Positions 6,260 through 39,267 of a stretch of DNA of 39,464 nucleotides are shown piece after piece. Each line of letters begins with the position of its first letter. Position 1 is the stretch's first letter. Location of the stretch: positions 1-39,464 of the forward strand of contig JBGSXG010000048.1 of the NCBI GenBank assembly GCA_041751485.1, in the 5' to 3' direction. The DNA comes from Minisyncoccia bacterium. Its GTDB lineage: Bacteria > Patescibacteriota > Minisyncoccia > Phycocordibacterales > CAJQIN01. A program made the translations under genes and the position numbers. A model generated the notes under the pieces. That model did not search any database. It worked only from the letters and a program-made list of their open reading frames with translations, and was not told the origin of the DNA.

Positions 6260-6658
6260 ATGATACAAAAATACATTGGCCATCGGCCTGATTTAGGAAT
6301 TCTAGTTTTGAGAATTGTTATCGGTGTGGCTTTTATTGCCCACGGATATGCAAAGTTTGCTGGAGGTATCGAAAATGTGGCTGGATTTTTTACCACATTG
6401 GGTATTCCAGCAGCACTTCTTATGGCTTGGATAGTTGCACTTGTTGAATTCGTAGGTGGTCTTGCAATCCTTTTGGGTGTTGGTACACGACTTGCGGCAC
6501 TTCTTTTGGCGGTGGTGATGGTTGTGGCTATTGCTACTGCTAAATTCCCGCTTGGTTTTTTGGGTGGGTACGAGCTTGATGTAGTTATCTTAGGAAGTTT
6601 GATCGCGCTACTACTTGGTGGATCAGGTAAGTATGCTGTTTTAAAAGAAAGAGATTAG
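6260..6658 (+). CDS. DoxX-family membrane protein
   Basis: 132 aa, 4 TM helices. LGILVLRIVIGVAFIAHGYAKF...GIPAALLMAWIVALVEFVGGLAILLG is typical DoxX. Confidence 0.75.
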   Translation: MIQKYIGHRPDLGILVLRIVIGVAFIAHGYAKFAGGIENVAGFFTTLGIPAALLMAWIVALVEFVGGLAILLGVGTRLAALLLAVVMVVAIATAKFPLGFLGGYELDVVILGSLIALLLGGSGKYAVLKERD

Positions 6659-6684
6659 AGATTAGAGTTTGGAAAATAGAAAAA
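6650..6684. repeat. phased heptamer array agagatt|agagatt|agagttt|ggaaaat|agaaaaa
   Basis: Read directly from the sequence. It begins inside the last doxX codons. Confidence 0.7.
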
Positions 6685-6685
6685 G

Positions 6686-6718
6686 AAAACCCCCGAAGCC
6701 TAAGGCTTCGGGGGTTTT
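6686..6718. terminator. bidirectional intrinsic terminator (AAAACCCCCGAAGCC-TAA-GGCTTCGGGGGTTTT)
   Basis: Perfect 15-bp stem including an A-run and a T-run, placed between the convergent doxX (+) and truB-like (-) genes. Confidence 0.75.
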
Positions 6719-6726
6719 AAACTTTA

Positions 6727-6808
6727 ATTTTAGGCTTGATTAGAATTTAGGACTTAGAGTTTGTAGTTTAGTAGTTCTCTAGTCTCCAATCTCTAACGCC
6801 TAGTGTCT
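6727..6808. repeat. TTAG/CTCT-word heptamer-like array
   Basis: TAG at 6748, 6755 and 6769. The phase is perfect in 6781-6808 (agtctcc|aatctct|aacgcct|agtgtct), with one phase slip upstream. Confidence 0.55.
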
Positions 6809-7517
6809 ATTTTAAAATTTCCGTTCTTCTTAATTTCAAAAGTGTTGTCGGAAAAGAAAATTCTTCTGCCAGGCCTCTAATAAAAGTTCCGCTAGACACA
6901 TGTAAATCAACTTTAAAAACCTGCATATCCTTTGTCGCATCTTTAAAAAATTCTTTCCAACAATTTAAAATATCTTCTTGTCTAAAATCACCAGAAACTT
7001 TTTGTATGGAAGATTCGATATCTTTACGAACTTCTTCAGACTTTATGTTGTCTATAGAAATTAAACTCGAGTCTCTAATTGAGACCTTTTGAATAGGGCG
7101 GTTAATCTCTGTATTGCCTGCTTTAAAGTGATCAAAGAGCTTTATGCCGCCTACTGTTTTCCCAGAAAACCACGGGTAAGTTTGCTCAGTAATCTGTTTT
7201 AAATCTGAAATCTCTTTCTCCAAAATACTCCAATTAATTGGAGTATTTTTGGTACGCGCAATCAGTCCGAGAGTATCCCCAGTGTCCGTTGATACTCCTG
7301 CTAGAAAAGTAGCTGTATATATTTTGTCGTAGCCAAGGTGTTTTTTTCTATCAGCATTTTCTTGCTTGCCGACTAAAATCAGCATCACTCCCTCTGCCAT
7401 TGGATCTAGGCGTCCGGCATACGAAAGAGTTTCTTCTTTTAATTCTGGGCGTTCTTGTCTGATTCGATCAAGAAGTTCGAGTGGTGTTTCGCCTCGAAGT
7501 TTATCTACCAGTAACAT
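6807..7517 (-). CDS. truB: tRNA pseudouridine synthase, TruB family (short, no PUA domain)
   Basis: LLVDKLRGETPLELLDRI...SYAGRLDPMAEGVMLILVG (catalytic Asp motif xLDPxAxG), followed by GVSTDTGDTLG. Confidence 0.7.
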   Translation of the reverse strand: MLLVDKLRGETPLELLDRIRQERPELKEETLSYAGRLDPMAEGVMLILVGKQENADRKKHLGYDKIYTATFLAGVSTDTGDTLGLIARTKNTPINWSILEKEISDLKQITEQTYPWFSGKTVGGIKLFDHFKAGNTEINRPIQKVSIRDSSLISIDNIKSEEVRKDIESSIQKVSGDFRQEDILNCWKEFFKDATKDMQVFKVDLHVSSGTFIRGLAEEFSFPTTLLKLRRTEILK

Positions 7518-9311: not shown

Positions 9312-9350
9312 GAAGTTTTAGAGTACGACACAAATGGTTAAAAAGCAATG

Positions 9351-9461
9351 GAGAGACGAGCTTCTTGCTTTTGGCTTTTAGGTGTTAGCTTTAAACCCCA
9401 GAAGCCCACGGCTTCTGGGGTTGTTCCTAAAAGCTAACAGCTAACAGCTAGAAGCTAGTCC
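9351..9461 (+). repeat. composite dispersed repeat: heptamer flank (gacgagctt..ttggcttttaggtgttagctt) + GC hairpin 9394-9422 + (CTAACAG)n array 9427-9461
   Basis: The flank plus hairpin recur in reverse complement at 37025-37094. The hairpin is AACCCCAGAAGCC-CAC-GGCTTCTGGGGTT. It lies in a divergent promoter region (typA <-> helicase), so it is not a conventional terminator there. Confidence 0.75.
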
Positions 9462-9570
9462 TGTGGTTTGACATTCTACACGATAAATGCTACTGTATTG
9501 ATCTTACTGAATATCGATAGTATATCTACATATCGCTGTTCGTTAAGCGATTATAGATAATACAATAGAT

Positions 9571-10848
9571 ATGAATAACTCAAATGGATCTCGAGGTTCT
9601 CGAGGTCGACAAGGCTCACGTCAAAGTGGGCGTAGGACCTTTAATGGAGGTTCTCGTAATAATAGTGGAGGAGGACGACGCTTTGGCGGTGGCTCTTCAC
9701 GTGGAAGAGGTGGACGTGGCGGTGGCCGAAGATTCGGTGCCAAGACTATTCACCCAGACAAATTTATCAACCGTAATCCAGTAATGCAGACGGCAGAAAA
9801 TTATACTCCTGTTCATACATTTGCTGACTTTGGATTCCATTCTCACATTGTTGATAACCTAACAAAGAAGGGTTACGTACATCCAACTCGTGTTCAAGAT
9901 GAGGCCATCCCGCACATTTTAGCTGGACGTGATGTTGTGGGTCTTGCAAATACTGGCTCTGGTAAAACAGCTGCTTTTGTTCTGCCTATCATTCAAAAAA
10001 TCAAAACCCAAACAACCAAGGAGCAAGTTTTGGTTATTACACCAACAAGGGAGCTAGCTCAACAAATTCAAAAAGAATTGGAACAGTTCACTCTTGGTAT
10101 GCAAATCTACTCAGTAGTTTGTGTTGGAGGACTTGGTATTCGACCACAGATTAGTGGACTAAGACGCGGACCACACGTAGTCATTGGAACACCAGGACGG
10201 TTGAAAGACCTTTTGAAACAGGGAGAATTGCGATTGGACAAAACTACAACACTCGTTTTGGATGAGGCTGATCATATGCTTGATATGGGATTCTTGCCAG
10301 ACGTTCGGTTTATTACAGACGCATTGCCAAAGAAAAAGCAGTCATTGTGTTTCTCTGCAACTCTAGCTCCTGAGATTACTCGACTACTTGATACAATGCT
10401 TGTTGATCCTGTTACCATCTCAGTACGAACTAGCGAGACTGGTGAGCATATTGCTCAGGATATTATCAGAGCCAAAACTCCAGATGAAAAAATGAAAGAG
10501 CTAACGCGAATGCTTTCACAGGATAAATTTGAAAAAGTTTTGATTTTCGGAGAAATGAAGCACAGTGTTCAGAAACTTGCTGATATCCTAACTAAACAAG
10601 GATACGCAGCTACTGCAATTCATGGTAATAAATCACAAGTTCAGCGACAACGTGCTCTTGATGCATTTAAAACAGGAAAGGTTAACATTCTAGTTGCTAC
10701 TGGTGTGGCCGCTCGTGGACTGGATATCCCTAACGTTTCTCACGTTATTAACTTCGATCAGCCAAATACTCACGACGAATATGTTCACCGAATCGGTCGA
10801 ACCGGCCGAGCCGGCAAACCCGGACAGGCTTACACTTTCGTAGATTAA
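9571..10848 (+). CDS. DEAD-box ATP-dependent RNA helicase with N-terminal RGG/RS-rich tail
   Basis: Motifs ANTGSGKT (I), PTRELA (Ia), DEAD (II), SAT (III), HRIGRTGRAG (VI). The first ~57 aa are Arg/Gly/Ser/Asn low complexity. Confidence 0.9.
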   Translation: MNNSNGSRGSRGRQGSRQSGRRTFNGGSRNNSGGGRRFGGGSSRGRGGRGGGRRFGAKTIHPDKFINRNPVMQTAENYTPVHTFADFGFHSHIVDNLTKKGYVHPTRVQDEAIPHILAGRDVVGLANTGSGKTAAFVLPIIQKIKTQTTKEQVLVITPTRELAQQIQKELEQFTLGMQIYSVVCVGGLGIRPQISGLRRGPHVVIGTPGRLKDLLKQGELRLDKTTTLVLDEADHMLDMGFLPDVRFITDALPKKKQSLCFSATLAPEITRLLDTMLVDPVTISVRTSETGEHIAQDIIRAKTPDEKMKELTRMLSQDKFEKVLIFGEMKHSVQKLADILTKQGYAATAIHGNKSQVQRQRALDAFKTGKVNILVATGVAARGLDIPNVSHVINFDQPNTHDEYVHRIGRTGRAGKPGQAYTFVD

Positions 10849-10850
10849 AC

Positions 10851-10882
10851 AAAAAATCCTAGGTTTAACCTAGGATTTTTTG
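10851..10882. terminator. bidirectional intrinsic terminator
   Basis: AAAAAATCCTAGGT-TTA-ACCTAGGATTTTTT, between the convergent helicase (+) and GIY-YIG (-) genes. It overlaps the 3' end of the latter. Confidence 0.7.
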
Positions 10883-11115
10883 TTTACGAGTTTTAGTTTT
10901 TCTTTTCTTGATAACCTTTTTATTTCGGCTTCGCGTTTAGAGGCACTACTTCGGTTTGAGCTTTGTTCTGTGTAAACAATTCTTTTAGCACCATGTGCTT
11001 TGGTGTAGTGTCCGCCAAGTCCTTCCTTGTGTTCCTGAAAACGTCTTTTGATGTCGGTAGTGATACCAGTATAAAGCGTGCCATCATTGCATTTAAGAAT
11101 ATAAACAGTGTACAT
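10870..11115 (-). CDS. GIY-YIG nuclease-family protein (UPF0213-like, stand-alone domain)
   Basis: MYTVYILKCNDGTLYTGITTDIKRRFQEHKEG... shows the GIY-(x10)-YTG motif plus a conserved R..EH. Confidence 0.8.
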   Translation of the reverse strand: MYTVYILKCNDGTLYTGITTDIKRRFQEHKEGLGGHYTKAHGAKRIVYTEQSSNRSSASKREAEIKRLSRKEKLKLVNKKS

Positions 11116-11948: not shown

Positions 11949-12019
11949 CTGCCAGACTTGGACTCGAACCAAGATAACATCCTCCAGAGGGATGTGTCCT
12001 ACCATTAGACGATCTGGCA
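11949..12019 (-). tRNA. tRNA-Gln (anticodon CUG), CCA not encoded
   Basis: A manual cloverleaf folds cleanly. Acceptor stem TGCCAGA/TCTGGCA (U1:A72), discriminator G73, D-loop AATGGTA. Anticodon stem CATCC/GGATG with loop CU-CUG-GA. T-arm CTTGG-TTCGAGT-CCAAG. Length 71 nt. Confidence 0.85.
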
Positions 12020-15884: not shown

Positions 15885-16295
15885 ATGAAAGAAGATCAAA
15901 TATATTGGGTAGGGCAAAAAGCCTTTATCGAGAAGGATGGGGAAGTTTTAATTTTCATCACTCCCTCTGGAGAACCGGATTTCCCTGGAGGTAAAATCCA
16001 AGAGGGAGAAGATAATTTGGCAGAATCTTTAAAACGAGAAGTTCTAGAAGAATCAAATTTAGAAATCGAAGTCGGAGAACCTTTTGCTGTGTGGCAAAGG
16101 GTATTTCCAGAAAATCACAAGTATGCCGGAAAGATGATATATCTAGTGGCTTTCAAGTGTAGCTATGTTTCTGGCGAGTTAAAACTTAGCGATGAGCATA
16201 AAGATTTTCGCTGGGTAAATAAAGATAATTATAAAGAAGTTGATAATGGCGGAGAATACTTCAAAACATTAGATAAATATTTTAAATCTTTGTAG
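15885..16295 (+). CDS. NUDIX hydrolase
   Basis: Nudix box GGKIQEGEDNLAESLKREVLEESNL (GX5EX7REUXEEXGU). Start at MKEDQIYW (ATG 15885), because the longer ORF 15762 runs through the upstream terminator. Confidence 0.8.
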   Translation: MKEDQIYWVGQKAFIEKDGEVLIFITPSGEPDFPGGKIQEGEDNLAESLKREVLEESNLEIEVGEPFAVWQRVFPENHKYAGKMIYLVAFKCSYVSGELKLSDEHKDFRWVNKDNYKEVDNGGEYFKTLDKYFKSL

Positions 16296-16299
16296 TTTA

Positions 16300-16390
16300 G
16301 ACGTTAGATTTTTGAGTTTTGAACTTTGAATTTTGAGCTTGTTTAGAGTTTCGATTTTAGAACTTAGAATTTCCTATCTAGTATCTTTGA
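16300..16390. repeat. 13-unit phased heptamer array
   Basis: gacgtta|gattttt|gagtttt|gaacttt|gaatttt|gagcttg|tttagag|tttcgat|tttagaa|cttagaa|tttccta|tctagta|tctttga, with no phase slip. Confidence 0.8.
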
Positions 16391-16405
16391 TATACTAGAT
16401 AGGCG

Positions 16406-16818: not shown

Positions 16819-16884
16819 AAATAAGCCCAAATTCTGGCCTAGACCGGTAATTTCAATGGGTAATACACAGTATCACCCGTTTAT
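16819..16884 (+). repeat. dispersed repeat, copy 1 (32-nt block AAATAAGCCCAAATTCTGGCCTAGACCGGTAA + GGGTAATAC-ACA-GTATCACCC hairpin)
   Basis: The 32 nt at 16819-16850 are identical to 18442-18473. The hairpin part matches 20053-20085 and 24401-24430. Confidence 0.85.
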
Positions 16885-16981
16885 TTTGGTGTTTGAGGGG
16901 TGAAAACAGAAGTAGTTGCTTTTAAAGTTTTTTTGACTAGTATGCAAAGCAGAACTCCACCACCAACAGAAAGGTTTCGAG

Positions 16982-18441: not shown

Positions 18442-18505
18442 AAATAAGCCCAAATTCTGGCCTAGACCGGTAAATTAAGGGGGTAAAACTATAGATTACT
18501 TCTAA
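18442..18505 (+). repeat. dispersed repeat, copy 2 (identical 32-nt block + degenerate hairpin GGGTAAAAC-TATA-GATTACTT)
   Basis: 18442-18473 is identical to 16819-16850. Confidence 0.85.
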
Positions 18506-18623
18506 GTTGGCAAGAGAGTCCGCCGGCTCGAAAGTTGTGGGGTATTTTGGTTTGTCTTGGGGAAATGAAATAGAAGATAGGATGCCAAAACATTTGACCA
18601 TTAACATTTGACGAAATTTAAAA

Positions 18624-18658
18624 GATTAGAAATCAGTTTTTAGATATTAGTTTTTAGT
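18624..18658. repeat. phased heptamer array gattaga|aatcagt|ttttaga|tattagt|ttttagt
   Basis: Read directly from the sequence. Confidence 0.7.
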
Positions 18659-18676
18659 TTGCTATAATAATTTCAT

Positions 18677-19567: not shown

Positions 19568-19597
19568 TTTGTTCTGCTATCCAGAAGCACACCATAT

Positions 19598-19632
19598 CTA
19601 ATTTCTATCGTCTAAACTCCAACCTCTAATTT
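19598..19632. repeat. phased heptamer array ctaattt|ctatcgt|ctaaact|ccaacct|ctaattt
   Basis: Read directly from the sequence. Confidence 0.7.
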
Positions 19633-19674: not shown

Positions 19675-20043
19675 ATGTTTGAAATTTTAACTTTGTTCGT
19701 GGGGCTTGTTATCGGCGGAGGCATTGCCTGGCTATTTATTAAACGCCGGACGGCAGAGCTTGCCGACGAGCTTCGTCGTACTGAGTGCGAAAAGACTGCG
19801 CACGAGGAAATAGCATCTAGTTTGGATGAGTATAACGTTCGTTTGCAACAAGAAAAAGATGAGCGAAAAGAGTCAATAATAAAAAAGATCCAAGAAGACG
19901 TTTCTATTCAGAACAATGAGGTGGCTGATATGTTTGAGGTATCTCGCAAAACTGCCTATAACTACTTAGAAGAGCTGGAGACAGAAGGGAAGATAAAGCA
20001 GGTTGGATCTGCTGGCCGACATGTAATCTACAAAATGGCTTAA
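19675..20043 (+). CDS. membrane-anchored winged-HTH protein
   Basis: N-terminal TM helix (ILTLFVGLVIGGGIAWLFI), a charged coiled segment, and a C-terminal HTH (NNEVADMFEVSRKTAYNYLEELETEGKIKQVG). Confidence 0.5.
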   Translation: MFEILTLFVGLVIGGGIAWLFIKRRTAELADELRRTECEKTAHEEIASSLDEYNVRLQQEKDERKESIIKKIQEDVSIQNNEVADMFEVSRKTAYNYLEELETEGKIKQVGSAGRHVIYKMA

Positions 20044-20089
20044 ATAGGTCATTTCAATGGGTAATACACAGTATTACCCATTGAATTTT
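20044..20089 (+). repeat. dispersed repeat, copy 3 / terminator hairpin TTCAATGGGTAATAC-ACA-GTATTACCCATTGAA + T4
   Basis: Perfect 15-bp stem at 20053-20085, immediately after the stop codon. Confidence 0.8.
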
Positions 20090-20111
20090 GGCTTTGCAGA
20101 GCTATTTTATA

Positions 20112-20137
20112 TTTTGGCGGTCCGACCGCCAAATTTT
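20112..20137 (+). terminator. second hairpin TTGGCGG-TCCGA-CCGCCAA + T-run
   Basis: Read directly from the sequence. Confidence 0.5.
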
Positions 20138-20165
20138 CTAATCTCCAATGTCTAAACTCTAATTC
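20138..20165. repeat. phased heptamer array ctaatct|ccaatgt|ctaaact|ctaattc
   Basis: Read directly from the sequence. It uses the same unit types as 19598-19632. Confidence 0.7.
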
Positions 20166-20180
20166 TTGTGGAAAAGCCAC

Positions 20181-25509: not shown

Positions 25510-26424
25510 ATGAAAAATACATTAATTGCTATTGTTATCATAATTGTTCTTGCTGGTATTGGAATATTTGTTTTTATGAGCAACGGACAGGACACAGATC
25601 TTACAAGAGATGATCAGAATGCTGAGCAGAGAGATGCTGATCAAAATCAAACAGAAGACGAGGCTGAGCAAGAATATGCAACTCAGACAGTTATCGGCTC
25701 ATCCGTTGAAGGACGAGACATTACTGCATATCACTTTGGAACAGGAGACACTGAGATCTTGCTTATTGGTGGAATTCACGGAGGATATTCGTGGAATACT
25801 GCTTTGTTAGGAAATGAATTTGTATCGCACTTTAGCGAAAATGAAGGGGCGGTGCCCGAAGGTGTGCGACTAACGGTTATTCCAGTAATGAATCCTGATG
25901 GATTAAATAAGGTGGTATCTGATACATCTGATTTTGTGGTAGGCGATGTCAACACTTCTTCTGAGGTGCGCATTAGTGGACGATTTAACGAAAACGGTGT
26001 TGATCTAAACCGAAACTTTGATTGTGTGTGGCAAACTGAAGGTGTGTGGCAGAGCCGTACAGTTAGCGGTGGAGATGCACCATTCTCAGAACCAGAGTCT
26101 CAAGCTGTGCGAGATTATGTAGAGAGCAGTAACCCTGATGCAGTAGTGGTTTATTACAGTTCTGCTGGAGGTGTCTTTGCTTCAAGTTGTAACAATGGAG
26201 TCTCGGATGAGACTGCTGGTTTGACTAACTTGTATGCACAAGCTTCAGGGTACGCAGCTTTTCAATCATTCGATTTTTACGAAATTACTGGAGATATGGT
26301 GAACTGGTTGGCTAAGGAAAATGTTCCGGCTATTAGTGTCTTGTTGACTAACCACACAAGTATTGAGTGGGACAAAAATATTGCAGGAGTGGAGGCAATG
26401 ATTGAACAGGCAACTAATAACTAA
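25510..26424 (+). CDS. M14 carboxypeptidase-like protein, membrane-anchored, active-site residues substituted (likely pseudo-enzyme)
   Basis: Paralog of 26545..27399, sharing GGIHGGY.WN, NPDGL and GVDLNRNFDC. Differences from the paralog are S for E in HGGYSWN, Y for H in VYYSSAGG, and L for E in SVLLT. Confidence 0.75.
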   Translation: MKNTLIAIVIIIVLAGIGIFVFMSNGQDTDLTRDDQNAEQRDADQNQTEDEAEQEYATQTVIGSSVEGRDITAYHFGTGDTEILLIGGIHGGYSWNTALLGNEFVSHFSENEGAVPEGVRLTVIPVMNPDGLNKVVSDTSDFVVGDVNTSSEVRISGRFNENGVDLNRNFDCVWQTEGVWQSRTVSGGDAPFSEPESQAVRDYVESSNPDAVVVYYSSAGGVFASSCNNGVSDETAGLTNLYAQASGYAAFQSFDFYEITGDMVNWLAKENVPAISVLLTNHTSIEWDKNIAGVEAMIEQATNN

Positions 26425-26448
26425 TATCTAATATCTAATATCTAATAA
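26414..26448. repeat. near-perfect tandem heptamer (CTAATAT)n, 5 units
   Basis: ctaataa|ctaatat|ctaatat|ctaatat|ctaataa. It starts in the last codons of the gene and includes its stop codon. Confidence 0.85.
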
Positions 26449-26465
26449 CGCCGACCTGCGGTCGG

Positions 26466-26542
26466 GACAGATAACAAGTGACATTTGACTTGTGACAATT
26501 GACTAAGCACTAAGAACTAACAACTAAGTACTAAACACAGTT
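26466..26542 (+). repeat. 11-unit phased heptamer array (xACxxxx), forming the SD-less leader of the next gene
   Basis: gacagat|aacaagt|gacattt|gacttgt|gacaatt|gactaag|cactaag|aactaac|aactaag|tactaaa|cacagtt. Confidence 0.85.
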
Positions 26543-26544
26543 CT

Positions 26545-27399
26545 ATGAAAAGAATCATCGGGATCACAATTGGCATTATTATTTTAGTGGTCCTTGCGGT
26601 GGTTTTTTGGCCCGAGGCACAACCTGAAATAGCACAGGAGCCAGAGCCAACTCAAGAATGGACTCAGGAGGTAATTGGAAGCTCAGTGGAGGGTCGCTCC
26701 ATTGAGGCTTTTACCTATGGAGATGGGCAGACAAACTTGCTTTTCGTTGGTGGAATTCACGGAGGATATGAATGGAATAGTGTCTTGTTGGCTTATGCTG
26801 TTATGGATCATTTGGAAGAAAATCCGGATGTAATACCGGATGATTTGCAGGTTACTATTGTCCCTTCGGCTAATCCGGACGGACTCTTTACTGTTTTAGG
26901 AGTTGAGGGACGCTTCTCGGCCACTGAGGTGCCAGCAGGGGTAGATACTAGTGTTGGCAGATTTAATGCTCGCGGAGTGGACTTGAATAGAAACTTTGAT
27001 TGTAAGTGGGCACCGGAAAGTACTTGGCGTGGACAGACAGTCAGTGCTGGGACAGCACCTTTTTCAGAGCCAGAAGCTAGAGCTATAAAGAGCGTGGTAG
27101 AAAAGTATGCGCCGAGTGCCGTGGTCTTTTGGCATAGCCAAGCTAACAATGTTTATGCTTCTGAATGTTACGAAGGCGTTTTGCCAGTTACATTAGATGT
27201 AATGAACTTATACGCACAGGCTGGAAATTATGGAGCTGTGGAAGTTTTTGACGCTTATCCTGTAACTGGAGATGCCGAAGGCTGGTTGGCTTCGATTGGT
27301 ATTCCGTCCGTGACTGTTGAGTTAGAAACAAGAAATAGTATTGAGTGGGAGCGTAACTGGGCAGGTATGCGGGCATTGTTTGAATATTTTACAAATTAG
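26545..27399 (+). CDS. M14-family zinc carboxypeptidase, membrane-anchored
   Basis: IHGGYEWN (His/Glu ligands), NPDGL, GVDLNRNFDC, FWHSQ (third ligand His), and TVELE (catalytic Glu). Confidence 0.8.
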   Translation: MKRIIGITIGIIILVVLAVVFWPEAQPEIAQEPEPTQEWTQEVIGSSVEGRSIEAFTYGDGQTNLLFVGGIHGGYEWNSVLLAYAVMDHLEENPDVIPDDLQVTIVPSANPDGLFTVLGVEGRFSATEVPAGVDTSVGRFNARGVDLNRNFDCKWAPESTWRGQTVSAGTAPFSEPEARAIKSVVEKYAPSAVVFWHSQANNVYASECYEGVLPVTLDVMNLYAQAGNYGAVEVFDAYPVTGDAEGWLASIGIPSVTVELETRNSIEWERNWAGMRALFEYFTN

Positions 27400-28656: not shown

Positions 28657-28686
28657 ACCCCCCGAAGCGCAAGCGCTTCGGGGGTT
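28657..28686 (+). terminator. GC hairpin CCCCCGAAGCGC-AA-GCGCTTCGGGGG (same family as 6686, 9394 and 37025)
   Basis: 12-bp perfect stem 17 nt after the ndh stop. The T-run is weak (TTATTA). Confidence 0.65.
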
Positions 28687-28850
28687 ATTACTAAGCACTG
28701 ACCTCCTGTTTGACTACTGTTCTACCTGTGGTACCATTAGGGATGTAAACGTGTCTCATAGCAATGTATTTGTATGTGAGGGGATCGATCGTTTTACAGG
28801 TCTCGACTTAGTCGAGGCGCTCATTTACAAATAAAACATTGTTTCAAGAA

Positions 28851-31382: not shown

Positions 31383-31772
31383 ATGGCTAAGAAAAAATCA
31401 AATCACACAGGTACAAAAGTAGCTCTAGGTATTGGTGCTGGACTTGCTGTTGCAGCTGCTGCTGGAACAGCTTGGTTGTACGGCACAGAGAAAGGAAGAA
31501 AGACAAAAAAGAAACTATCTTCTTGGATGCTTAAAGCAAAAGGTGAGGTGTTGGAGAAGATTGAAAAGATGGGTGATGTAACGGAGGAGAAGTATCATGC
31601 AGCTGTTGGGCAGGTAATGAGCAAATACAAGAAGATGAAGAATATTTCTGCTAGCGAGGTTGCTGTATTAGAAGCAGATTTGAAAAAGCATTGGAAGAAT
31701 ATTCATAGTATGGTTTCTCCTAAGAAAAAGGCGAGTGTTAGAAAGCGACCAAGAACTGCTAAGAAGAAATAG
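31383..31772 (+). CDS. YtxH-like protein
   Basis: KVALGIGAGLAVAAAAGTAWLYGTEKGRKTKKKL (Gly/Ala anchor followed by a basic helix). Confidence 0.5.
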   Translation: MAKKKSNHTGTKVALGIGAGLAVAAAAGTAWLYGTEKGRKTKKKLSSWMLKAKGEVLEKIEKMGDVTEEKYHAAVGQVMSKYKKMKNISASEVAVLEADLKKHWKNIHSMVSPKKKASVRKRPRTAKKK

Positions 31773-31774
31773 AT

Positions 31775-31809
31775 AAATTAGAAGTTAGAATATAGAAGAT
31801 ATAAAAAAC
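31775..31809. repeat. phased heptamer array aaattag|aagttag|aatatag|aagatat|aaaaaac
   Basis: Read directly from the sequence. Confidence 0.7.
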
Positions 31810-31834
31810 TGAAGCGCTTGCGCTTTAGTTTTTT
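31803..31834. terminator. bidirectional terminator A6-CTGAAGCG-CTTG-CGCTTTAG-T6
   Basis: Located between the convergent ytxH-like (+) and MFS (-) genes. Confidence 0.6.
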
Positions 31835-36941: not shown

Positions 36942-36993
36942 AAGAGTGATTATAGCAGGTGTTATTTTTATGGCAACAGATGGAATAGGCACT

Positions 36994-37100
36994 GGAGATT
37001 AGACGTTAGAGATTGGAGATTAGAGAATCCCCCGAAGCCAAGGGCTTCGGGGGATTCAAGAAAGAAGCTAACACCTAAAAGCCAAAAGCTCGTCCCTCTC
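36994..37100 (-). repeat. composite dispersed repeat (reverse-complement copy of 9351-9422): heptamers ggagatt|agacgtt|agagatt|ggagatt|agagaat + hairpin 37025-37057 + flank aagctaacacctaaaagccaaaagctcgtc
   Basis: The reverse complement of 37065-37094 is gacgagcttttggcttttaggtgttagctt. This matches 9355-9391 apart from a 7-nt insertion in the latter. Confidence 0.8.
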
Positions 37101-37102
37101 TC

Positions 37103-37130
37103 TTGATTTATGCTGGTATTTCCTTATAAT
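37103..37130 (+). promoter_or_regulatory. groES promoter candidate TTGATT-N16-TATAAT
   Basis: Hexamers read from the sequence, about 30 nt upstream of ATG 37160. No CIRCE inverted repeat is present. Confidence 0.45.
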
Positions 37131-37159
37131 TGGGCACACATTAGAAAGTAACTATACAT

Positions 37160-37477: not shown

Positions 37478-37502
37478 GGAGCGGAGCGACTATAATTTAT
37501 TT

Positions 37503-37564
37503 GCCCCGTGAATTCTTTGCGGAGCAAAGACAGGATGCGAAGCAGACTGAAATTCACTCGGGGC
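37503..37564 (+). promoter_or_regulatory. structured element in the groES-groEL spacer
   Basis: The outer stem pairs GCCCCGTGAATT with AATTCAC(TC)GGGGC. An inner hairpin CTTTGC-GGA-GCAAAG is present. No T-run follows. Confidence 0.4.
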
Positions 37565-37572
37565 TCTCGAAC

Positions 37573-38730
<1,158 letters not shown>

Positions 38731-38754
38731 CGCATTGCTAAACTAACTTGTGGT

Positions 38755-39267
38755 GTGGCCGTGGTTCGAGTTGGGGCGGCAACTGAGACAGAGATGAAGT
38801 ATTTGAAACTTAAGATTGAGGATGCCGTTAACGCCACAAAGGCTGCTATCGAAGAAGGAGTTGTTGCTGGAGGAGGAAGCTCTTTGGTCCACACGGCTAA
38901 GAAAATTGCTGGAAAGAAGATGGCAAGTGCAGAAGAGCAAATTGGTTATGACATTGTTGTTCGAGCGCTTGAGGCCCCATTGCGACAAATTGCAATAAAT
39001 GCAGGGAAAGAAGATGGAGCTGTGGTTGTTGAAAAAGTCCGAAATGCTGGAGAGAAGTCTGGTTATAACGCTCTTTCTGGTGAGATTATTTCAGATATGC
39101 TTAAAGCTGGAATTATTGATCCGGTTAAAGTCGAGCGAGCGGCGGTTCAAAATGCAGCCTCAGCGGCAGCGATACTTCTGACTACTGAAGCGGCTGTTAC
39201 AGAAGAGCCTAAGGAAGAGAAGGGTGATGCCACTGGAATGGGAGGGGGAATGCCGGGGATGATGTAA
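38755..39267 (+). CDS. groEL: chaperonin GroEL, C-terminal part, same frame as 37633..38730 (homology resumes right after the TAA at 38731; GTG 38755 is only the first possible restart)
   Basis: RIAKLTCGVAVVRVGAATETEMKYLKLKIEDAVNATKAAIEEGVVAGGG...GGGMPGMM, a typical GroEL C-terminus. Confidence 0.85.
   Translation: MAVVRVGAATETEMKYLKLKIEDAVNATKAAIEEGVVAGGGSSLVHTAKKIAGKKMASAEEQIGYDIVVRALEAPLRQIAINAGKEDGAVVVEKVRNAGEKSGYNALSGEIISDMLKAGIIDPVKVERAAVQNAASAAAILLTTEAAVTEEPKEEKGDATGMGGGMPGMM

Follow-up and report, generated by a model that had tools for sequence, protein, structure and literature searches.

Intergenic repeats with a 7-nt unit were first noticed some 35 years ago, and no other class of long simple sequence repeat (SSR) is as common in bacteria, yet the length of the unit and the role of the repeats are still unexplained. 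The classical words CCCCAGT, TTGGTCA and CAACAGT belong to the STRR (short tandemly repeated repetitive) repeats, a name and attribution that reportedly go back to Mazel et al. in 1990. Three heptamer families were first described in Calothrix PCC 7601 (as summarised in PMC4692102 and PMC4679880), and the survey of Mrázek et al. 2007, as relayed by the same two papers, found heptamers to be the most abundant class of long SSR, with a scattered phylogeny, and proposed polymerase slippage as their origin. Here we describe heptamer arrays in the intergenic spacers of a Minisyncoccia bacterium, on the 39,464-bp contig JBGSXG010000048.1 (assembly GCA_041751485.1), the whole of which is called the window below.

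Further heptamers have been described since. They are strongly over-represented in the intergenic DNA of Xanthomonas and Nostoc, including as inverted pairs (Rehm et al., PMC4692102), and Nostoc PCC 7120 carries TTTTGAA/TTCAAAA heptamers upstream of start codons (bioRxiv 10.1101/2022.06.06.494920). TAACTGA repeats occur in marine Beggiatoaceae, some Cyanobacteria and Bacteroidetes, with close relatives that lack them and have shorter spacers, and Cyanothece strains differ by 7-nt indels (MacGregor 2015, PMC4679880). In the literature searched we found no report linking heptamer repeats to Patescibacteria. The arrays of the window are heptanucleotide repeats of this kind, with a 7-nt tandem unit, a non-coding location, dispersed loci and a sporadic distribution among lineages. 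A preliminary description of this DNA, made from the letters and their open reading frames (ORFs), had not recognised a described class of element, but intergenic heptanucleotide repeats are well documented (PMC4679880, PMC4692102).

The window shares with the STRR repeats tandem 7-nt intergenic units at many loci, several word variants in one genome and occasional inverted pairs. One word is common to both, since TTTTGAA is the Tandem Repeats Finder (TRF) consensus at 16310–16336 and also a heptamer of Nostoc PCC 7120. STRR hosts, however, have large cyanobacterial genomes, whereas the host of the window is a streamlined member of the Paceibacteria, within the candidate phyla radiation (CPR); the window arrays are short (4–6 units), degenerate and built on a single CTAA core, while the classical STRR words are mostly richer in G/C and some lack stop triplets. 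Intergenic over-representation, scattered phylogeny and a proposed slippage origin are likewise shared with the 7-nt long SSRs as these have been summarised, although the 2007 survey predates CPR genomes and we found neither a common core nor an orientation rule in the summaries consulted. The TAACTGA repeats are also stop-bearing heptamers, with forward (TAA-sense) copies directly upstream of starts that lack a Shine–Dalgarno (SD) motif and occasional reverse copies after a stop; there too, relatives without repeats have shorter spacers at the same junctions, and the flanking genes, essential ones included, have no common theme. The window differs in its family of CTAAnnn variants, its GC hairpins flanked by arrays, its palindromic modules and its host phylum. 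Because the units are CTAAnnn variants, its arrays are not members of the TAACTGA family and resemble it in position and orientation only.

The window has 41% GC and is ~89% coding on a longest-ORF gene map. We scored base identity at lags 1–30 over the 4,155 nt of the 27 spacers that are 40 nt or longer and, as a control, in 300 shuffles that preserve dinucleotide content. Intergenic lag-7 identity was 0.334 compared to 0.270 in the shuffled sequences (z = 9.8), and harmonics followed at lags 14 and 21 (z = 4.1 and 2.2). Coding DNA in the same test showed period 3 alone. The period-7 organisation of spacers, and its contrast with coding DNA, on which the preliminary description had centred, are therefore borne out. 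Arrays, called as segments in which lag-7 identity is 70% or higher across 28 nt (four units), cover 364 nt of ~4,500 intergenic nt and 40 nt of ~35,000 coding nt, and these 40 nt lie at gene ends, so that the remark that nothing comparable is found in coding regions also holds. The same test at lags 5, 6 and 8–12 gave zero intergenic arrays, and at lag 4 it gave 20 intergenic nt; the 127 nt called at lag 6 are entirely coding. TRF independently reports period 7 at 6650, 6754, 9427, 16310, 16342, 18635, 26412, 26502, 36995 and 37595, and the pattern (CTAANNN)5 with up to 2 mismatches has 9 matches in the window for 0 expected. Collectively, these results establish that the period-7 observation is real and far beyond chance.

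All 13 array positions listed in the preliminary description do hold arrays, in C-T-A-A register, but its statement that most spacers are organised in this way was an overestimate. Taken singly, 7 of the 25 spacers that span 40 nt or more have z ≥ 3, namely 6659–6806, 9312–9570, 16296–16405 (z = 6.3), 26425–26544 (z = 8.1), 31773–31832 (z = 3.3), 36993–37159 and 37478–37632; about four more are marginal (z ~2) and the remainder, roughly half, show nothing. In total, 16 arrays with differing tails are dispersed over 11 separate spacers and 31 kb of this one 39-kb contig, which rules out a single local duplication, the explanation that had been named as fatal to the proposal. Known structured RNAs are ruled out as well, the sole Rfam match at gathering threshold being a tRNA-Gln (11949–12019), and CRISPR- or TIGR-like arrays can be set aside, as the unit is 7 nt and no spacers separate the units. 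Scans for sigma-70 promoters and terminators were uninformative on the arrays and of use for the hairpins alone. The arrays and hairpins are the following:

6647–6684, minus strand: heptamer array of CTAATCT type (AGAGATT/TTAG type on the plus strand; TRF period 7, lag-7 array), overlapping the TAG stop (6656–6658) of the plus-strand gene 6260–6658.
6686–6718, no strand: GC-rich hairpin AAAACCCCCGAAGCC-TAA-GGCTTCGGGGGTTTT, copy 1 of the hairpin family, between convergent genes (terminator scan, repeat family, fold); its predicted shape is like that of a bidirectional terminator.
6738–6809, no strand: two abutting arrays of opposite orientation, 6738–6774 of TTAG type and 6775–6809 of CTAG/CTAA type on the plus strand, the latter abutting the stop of the minus-strand gene truB (6807–7517).
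9355–9463, no strand: palindromic module in the divergent bipA/DEAD-helicase spacer, with a TTAG-type array (9360–9394) and a CTAA-type array (9426–9461).
9394–9420, no strand: hairpin ACCCCAGAAGCC-CAC-GGCTTCTGGGGT between the arms of that module.
16294–16373, minus strand: two TTAG-sense sub-arrays right after the TAG stop of the NUDIX gene.
16374–16403, no strand: AT-rich palindrome CCTATCTAGTAT-CTTTGA-TATACTAGATAGG with a 12-bp stem, outside the array (fold).
18622–18660, minus strand: heptamer array of TTAG type on the plus strand (TRF, pattern), followed by an extended -10-like TTGCTATAAT.
19597–19632, plus strand: degenerate CTAA-sense array between tandem plus-strand genes (pattern with 2 mismatches).
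20113–20166, plus strand: terminator-like hairpin TTTGGCGGTC-CGA-CCGCCAAA (20113–20133), then a CTAA-sense array (20137–20166).
26412–26449, plus strand: the cleanest array, CTAATAA/CTAATAT x5 (TRF, 93% matches; exact pattern match).
26449–26540, plus strand: hairpin CCGACC-TGC-GGTCGG, a GTGACAn/TTGACTn stretch of 14-nt period and an ACTAAGN x5 array.
28657–28690, no strand: GC hairpin CCCCCGAAGCG-CAA-GCGCTTCGGGGG, copy 4 of the family, after the NDH-2 stop, with no flanking array.
31773–31832, minus strand: TTAG-sense array (TTAGAAG type), then hairpin AAACTGAAGCG-CTTG-CGCTTTAGTTT, between convergent genes.
36992–37095, no strand: divergent secG/groES module, whose array 36992–37029 (CTAATCT type on the minus strand) runs into the called secG start.
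37029–37053, no strand: hairpin CCCCCGAAGCC-AAG-GGCTTCGGGGG, followed by a CTAA-sense array (37066–37095) pointing to groES.
37587–37630, plus strand: CTAA-sense array, ACTAAnn x5, in the groES–groEL spacer, ending 2 nt before the groEL ATG (37633) and lying downstream of a structured stem-loop (~37503–37564).

Several arrays begin in or at the last codons of a gene, as had been noted (6650, 16294, 26412 and 31773), and the stop of the gene is absorbed or supplied in the register of the array: TAG at 6656, 16293 and 31770, and TAA at 26422. The array at 26412–26449 starts inside the last codons of M14 peptidase 1, whose TAA (26422–26424) is in register, and the array at 31773 directly follows the TAG at 31770–31772. 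At the other end of the spacers, CTAA-sense arrays stop 2–4 nt short of the starts of groEL and of M14 peptidase 2 (the ACTAAGN array, 26494–26540, ends 4 nt before the ATG at 26545) and run into the called secG start (36992). At 26466–26500 the period doubles to 14 nt (GTGACAT TTGACTT GTGACAA TTGACTA), giving repeated TTGAC(A/T) -35-like hexamers.

The array after the NUDIX gene, which had been presented as 13 units at 16300–16390 with no phase slip, consists of six units of TTTTGAA type in register 0 (16297–16338) and, after a slip of +4 nt, four units of TTTAGAA type (16343–16370); TRF also splits it, into rows at 16310–16336 and 16342–16372. The last three of the 13 supposed units are the arms of the palindrome at 16374–16403. 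Within reach of the TspO ATG (16406), 9 nt upstream, there is an extended -10-like TGATATACT that this palindrome overlaps, and we regard the palindrome as a candidate operator on a probably leaderless promoter.

Reading all 16 arrays (75 units) on the CTAA strand gives the unit consensus C(95%) T(79%) A(96%) A(83%) n n T(56%). The C-T-A-A core is common to 16 of 16 arrays, while positions 5–7 are specific to each array. Whole units are more alike within arrays than between them (mean Hamming distance 2.24 versus 2.94), a value as low as the former arising in 0 of 2,000 label permutations, and the difference resides in the tail (positions 5–7; 1.45 versus 2.08), the core being equally conserved within and between arrays (0.79 versus 0.86). 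Perfect adjacent copies also exist (CTAATAT x3, CTAACAG x2). This similarity pattern fits what local expansion of different seeds under a family-wide constraint on the core would produce.

Furthermore, we found array segments that recur at distant spacers: 9367–9391 and 37065–37089 are 100% complementary over 25 nt, 6775–6807 and 36995–37027 88% over 33 nt, 20133–20163 and 36998–37028 87% over 31 nt, and 18625–18659 and 26412–26446 86% over 35 nt. In several of these pairs the irregular order of variant units is identical, and independent slippage would not reproduce such pairs. Where arrays keep one orientation, the fold predictions leave them unpaired, including the one at 37587–37630. At 9355–9463, the left array is TTAG and the right array CTAA, so that the module folds as one long imperfect hairpin (single-stranded DNA fold, dG -35.3 kcal/mol, z = -8.6).

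A GC palindrome of the form CCCCnGAAGC...GCTTCnGGGG accompanies the arrays in four single copies (6690, 9396, 28659 and 37029), three of which are bordered by arrays; two copies sit in divergent promoter regions, with no obvious terminator use there. Like the REP and REPIN elements (PMC3116915), it is a short, GC-rich, repeated intergenic palindrome, at times not needed as a terminator and missing in relatives, since the family was not found in ~82 kb from four relatives. Unlike them, it has four copies seen, no RAYT found among the 47 ORFs scanned on the contig and no inverted doublets evident in the 39 kb, and heptad arms are not a REP feature.

We scanned 185,579 species-representative genomes for (CTAANNN)5 and recovered at least 120 loci, with taxa taken from the record titles. 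Among the matches listed, ~37, about a third, are from Cyanobacteria (Nostoc, Microcoleus, Stigonema, Moorena, Rivularia and others), ~26 from Bacteroidota, 11 from Acidobacteriota, ~10 from Bacillota and ~8 from Planctomycetota and Verrucomicrobiota; five are from Patescibacteria, comprising two Saccharibacteria, one Gracilibacteria, one Paceibacterota and one unclassified. Most of the listed 8-kb loci contain further period-7 arrays, which are predominantly intergenic, and other periods are uncommon. A metagenome scan with a 25-mer present in two spacers of the window gave one match, contig PDWI01031936.1 (L127), where a CTAA-sense array of 150 nt and ~21 units (1704–1855) takes up the space separating lacZ from an ABC sugar permease gene, with a normal SD after it. 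The LacZ of this contig is nearest to Leptotrichiaceae and Bacilli proteins. The same word family thus recurs in an unrelated bacterium of another phylum, the exact 25-mer meaning either that the arrays converged or that they passed between unrelated bacteria.

The host itself is not cyanobacterial: the best matches of the NUDIX and BipA proteins are metagenome-assembled genomes (MAGs) of Paceibacteria/Parcubacteria within the CPR, which rejects the cyanobacterial origin that 41% GC together with heptamers had suggested. In the four closest relatives compared, BipA is 81–85% identical; for NUDIX, the best identity in the collections searched is ~70%. The same code applied to ~82 kb around their bipA genes gave lag-7 z values of -0.8 to 0.9 and no arrays. 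The signal is therefore specific to the source lineage, neither produced by the method nor common to Paceibacteria at large. With listed matches scattered over many phyla and four close relatives free of it, the distribution is sporadic, matching the strain-specific occurrence reported for heptamers (PMC4679880). The tandem M14 peptidase pair allows a direct comparison: the two genes are orthologous in one relative (L006; 56% and 62% identity), where their junction is 4 nt, compared to 120 nt in the window, nearly all of it heptads.

The window carries groES–groEL, secG, bipA, a DEAD-box helicase gene, truB, NDH-2, metal-homeostasis genes and many small proteins without family match, a gene content in keeping with the Paceibacteria assignment, and the genes flanking arrays (chaperonin, secG, peptidases, NUDIX, TspO, bipA) have no common functional theme. 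An SD-like motif precedes only ~5 of ~50 predicted starts, in agreement with the earlier remark that the genome is poor in SD starts. Many starts have a TGnTAnnnT-type extended -10-like box 6–9 nt upstream of the ATG (for example 10870–11115, 12924, 16406 and 18893), a spacing that points to leaderless mRNAs. As judged from these start regions, the source genome would make widespread use of leaderless or SD-independent initiation.

The arrays are placed in a directional manner. The order typical of the window is stop, TTAG array, hairpin, CTAA array and start, and by our own reading of the spacers ~11 of 14 arrays obey it. Across the loci of the genome scan, on crude longest-ORF gene maps, CTAA-sense arrays in tandem spacers are at median distances of 27 nt from the start that follows and 111 nt from the stop that precedes, and TTAG-sense arrays at 123 nt and 6 nt, respectively (relative spacer position 0.83 versus 0.05, p = 1.3e-5). 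With CTAA on the top strand, the right-hand gene is the nearer one at ratios of 12:2 in divergent, 25:9 and 17:5 in tandem and 20:5 in convergent spacers. Overall, the nearest gene is the one that CTAA faces in 74 of 95 cases (74 versus 21, p = 4e-8; 72 versus 19 with one array per locus). Stops are abutted (within 15 nt) by TTAG-sense arrays in 40/83 and by CTAA-sense arrays in 9/83, about four times less often (Fisher p = 1.6e-7), and among the 40 stops abutted by TTAG, 28 are TAG and 22 are in array register. The asymmetry is real because artefacts of ORF calling would affect both orientations equally, each carrying sense-strand stops. The rule is equivalent to saying that CTAA reads toward the nearest gene and TTAG away from it, at starts and stops alike, and the anecdotal forward and reverse placements of the TAACTGA repeats described by MacGregor agree with it.

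Heptamers without CTAA show the same polarity as a weak trend (Spearman 0.21, p = 0.08). As this trend is non-significant and array-free spacers are weakly polar (0.0 versus 0.08), a generic A/T-skew polarity is ruled out as the cause of the rule. Seeding by stop codons is likewise ruled out as the sole cause, since it predicts TAA-sense arrays at TAA stops and TAG-sense arrays at TAG stops in equal measure, and the counts are 9 and 40.

We also looked at the stop content of the words. CTAA supplies TAA on one strand and TAG on the other, so that the observation of words with TAA/TAG on both strands and the stop arithmetic built on it are correct. Given the composition of the units, both strands would bear stops in 2.6 of 10 window arrays and do so in 7, and 197 non-seeded arrays from other genomes have stops on 0, 1 and 2 strands in 28, 92 and 77 cases (46, 103 and 48 expected, p = 3e-6). 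Yet the core is free of stops in about one fifth of units (CCAA, CAAA), and T2, which every stop needs, is conserved at 79%, compared to 95% and 96% at C1 and A3, the most conserved positions. A symmetric orientation rule is also not what a stop function predicts, because either orientation supplies sense-strand stops. We therefore treat the stop content as partly a filter, only stop-bearing heptads being harmless when they expand across a gene end, and partly a by-product, the stop of the gene being absorbed or supplied by the array.

We hypothesize, with a probability of about 60%, that the arrays are slippage-generated heptanucleotide repeats of the STRR/long-SSR kind, newly seen in a CPR lineage, confined to spacers, selected for orientation and partly spread together with a GC palindrome. 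Under this hypothesis, short C-T-A-A-n-n-n words would expand by slipped-strand mispairing and then decay by point mutation, leaving degenerate arrays with array-specific tails, as the similarity pattern suggests. Expansion would survive outside ORFs only, because 7 is not divisible by 3 and stops occur on both strands of most units, and arrays would accordingly pile up against gene boundaries; the confinement to spacers and the in-register stops are what we observe. Selection would then act on orientation, keeping CTAA (A-rich, G-poor, unpaired) toward the nearest gene and TTAG away from it, which would place an unstructured A/C-rich stretch before starts in an SD-poor genome. Finally, some modules have copies at other spacers, often beside the four-copy GC hairpin, and where the arms are inverted the whole spacer forms one long palindrome. 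The net effect would mostly be tolerated spacer filler, perhaps mildly useful as leader or trailer, with no dedicated machine.

Among the four roles put forward in the preliminary description, two fit this evidence. Slippage-generated filler agrees with the greater likeness of units inside arrays and with the grown M14 junction, and unstructured A/C-rich leaders agree with the CTAA-sense arrays that fold as unpaired and directly precede groEL and secG in an SD-poor genome. An all-frame stop insulator is only weakly supported: stop-bearing words are enriched, but T2 is the least conserved base of the core and the orientation rule is the same at starts and stops.

Several points weigh against the slippage hypothesis. 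Slippage is deduced from the pattern of the repeats only, and the nearest relative compared is just 85% identical in BipA; the analysis covers 39 kb of the source genome, and the cross-genome tests rest on crude longest-ORF maps. Moreover, slippage alone does not explain why 16 of 16 arrays have a single 4-nt core, why an irregular unit order recurs at distant loci, or why the CTAA/TTAG rule is strong when the trend for other heptamers is weak (p = 0.08). The 25-mer shared with the Leptotrichiaceae-like contig L127 hints at a sequence-specific process or convergence.

A second explanation, raised in the preliminary description and by MacGregor, is that the arrays are translation-control pads. 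CUAA heptads before a start would form leaders, unstructured and poor in G, that act as standby sites or enhancers where initiation is SD-independent, closure of all three frames just upstream would insulate the gene or allow termination–reinitiation, and UUAG after a stop would provide back-up stops in all frames. The nearly SD-less genome, the predicted unpaired CTAA arrays 2–4 nt before groEL and M14 peptidase 2 and running into the secG start, the enrichment of stop-bearing words beyond composition both in the window and in other genomes, and the cross-genome medians (CTAA 27 nt before starts, TTAG 6 nt after stops) all agree with it; the same idea was proposed for the Beggiatoaceae TAACTGA repeats (PMC4679880), and reporter data from Nostoc hint at effects on expression (bioRxiv 10.1101/2022.06.06.494920). 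We nevertheless consider it unlikely, although less so than the alternatives below. T2, the base needed for any stop, is the least conserved of the core (79%) and about one fifth of units have no core stop, the rule is symmetric at starts and stops although either orientation supplies sense-strand stops, most genes of the contig have no array and close relatives have none at all, the long CTAA array of L127 is followed by a normal SD, and some arrays lie 50–110 nt from any start.

It is rather doubtful, but worth stating, that the orientation rule would reflect a specific conserved interaction and not neutral slippage, either with a single-strand binder of ~7-nt footprint or with ribosome loading and release in SD-poor lineages (Cyanobacteria, Bacteroidota and the source CPR genome). 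If true, heptamer repeats would be a widespread, convergently recruited punctuation of gene boundaries.

Less probable again are cooperative sites for a nucleic-acid binder with a footprint of ~7 nt, whether a cold-shock-domain protein, ribosomal protein S1 or an RRM protein that would bind single-stranded DNA or RNA, or a regulatory or nucleoid protein that would bind duplex DNA. Cold-shock domains cover 6–7 nt. A core of 4 nt that is uniform in 16 of 16 arrays while the tails drift is what a recognition motif would give, C1 and A3 are conserved beyond the needs of a stop, and a small RRM protein is encoded on the contig (28839–29111); its candidacy is one of several, none tied to the arrays, the word tails vary widely, and the flanking genes share no theme, with arrays at starts, at stops and between convergent genes. 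The RRM protein (RRM_1, E = 1.7e-22) lies on the plus strand and has 90 aa with a single motif; small proteins of this type are characteristic of cyanobacteria, in which heptamer repeats are most abundant. By analogy, S1, Csp and CsrA were proposed as binders of TAACTGA (PMC4679880), and the TTTTGAT heptads of the Vibrio cholerae ctxAB promoter are described as recruiting regulators (bioRxiv 10.1101/2021.05.14.444153).

We give equally little weight to an origin from mobile elements, in which the arrays would either be the arms or footprints left by small non-autonomous palindromes, MITE-like or REP/REPIN-like with a hairpin core and heptad arms, or have been generated and spread by repeated insertion and excision at a CTAA-type target: the four-copy hairpin family has a nearly identical stem, with two copies in divergent promoter regions, array modules at distant spacers share an irregular unit order, 9355–9463 is one long palindrome, and the hairpin family is missing from 82 kb of relatives, and the phylogenetic distribution is sporadic, but no transposase, RAYT or integrase was found among 47 ORFs scanned of ~50 on the contig, the inverted heptad arms at 9355–9463 and 36992–37095 have no clear ends or target-site duplications by eye, arrays occur without the hairpin (16294, 19597, 37587) and the hairpin without an array (28657), and homogeneity within arrays indicates local growth.

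The repeats of the window indicate that heptamers can invade even very compact genomes, and quickly, because they are found in a CPR genome that is streamlined and nearly SD-less and are missing from its near relatives. The contig is also a clean case, as all of its arrays have one core. The most valuable by-product of the analysis is the orientation rule across phyla, which rests on crude gene calls among the matches listed and needs confirmation; its geometry (74/95 CTAA toward the gene; TTAG at stops ~4 times as often) must be explained by any mechanism. In practice, such arrays can mislead the calling of start and stop codons and break short-read MAG assemblies.

A few other features of the contig deserve mention. 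In the groES–groEL spacer, upstream of the CTAA array, a stable stem-loop GCCCCGTGAATTC...GAAATTCACTCGGGGC is predicted at 37498–37564 (z = -3.7 for the 143-nt segment 37490–37632); it is preceded by a TATAAT box (37491–37496), has no Rfam match at gathering threshold and could be a processing or regulatory structure or the leader of an internal promoter. The groEL frame (37633–39267) contains a single in-frame TAA at 38728–38730 (...FDVEKLD*RIAKLTCGVAVVRVGAATE...) and is otherwise intact to 39267. At this position E. coli GroEL presumably has Glu (KLQERVAKL), so that the TAA looks like a GAA to TAA change and may reflect an error in the assembly or consensus, variation in the population or a pseudogene.

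A second dispersed intergenic repeat, which is not heptadic, occurs in three copies of 48–61 nt that are 67–90% identical (16819–16895, 18442–18489 and 20020–20096), within 3.3 kb and downstream of the TspO, cupin and HTH genes. The copies at 16835–16895 and 20036–20096 hold a hairpin (AATGGGTAATAC-ACA-GTATTACCCATT at 20056–20082). Finally, a perfect inverted repeat with 20-nt arms (TAAACAAAAAATCCTAGGTT / AACCTAGGATTTTTTGTTTA) occupies 10846–10886, exactly between the stop of the DEAD-helicase gene and an 81-aa GIY-YIG gene in convergent orientation, and probably acts as a terminator in both directions.

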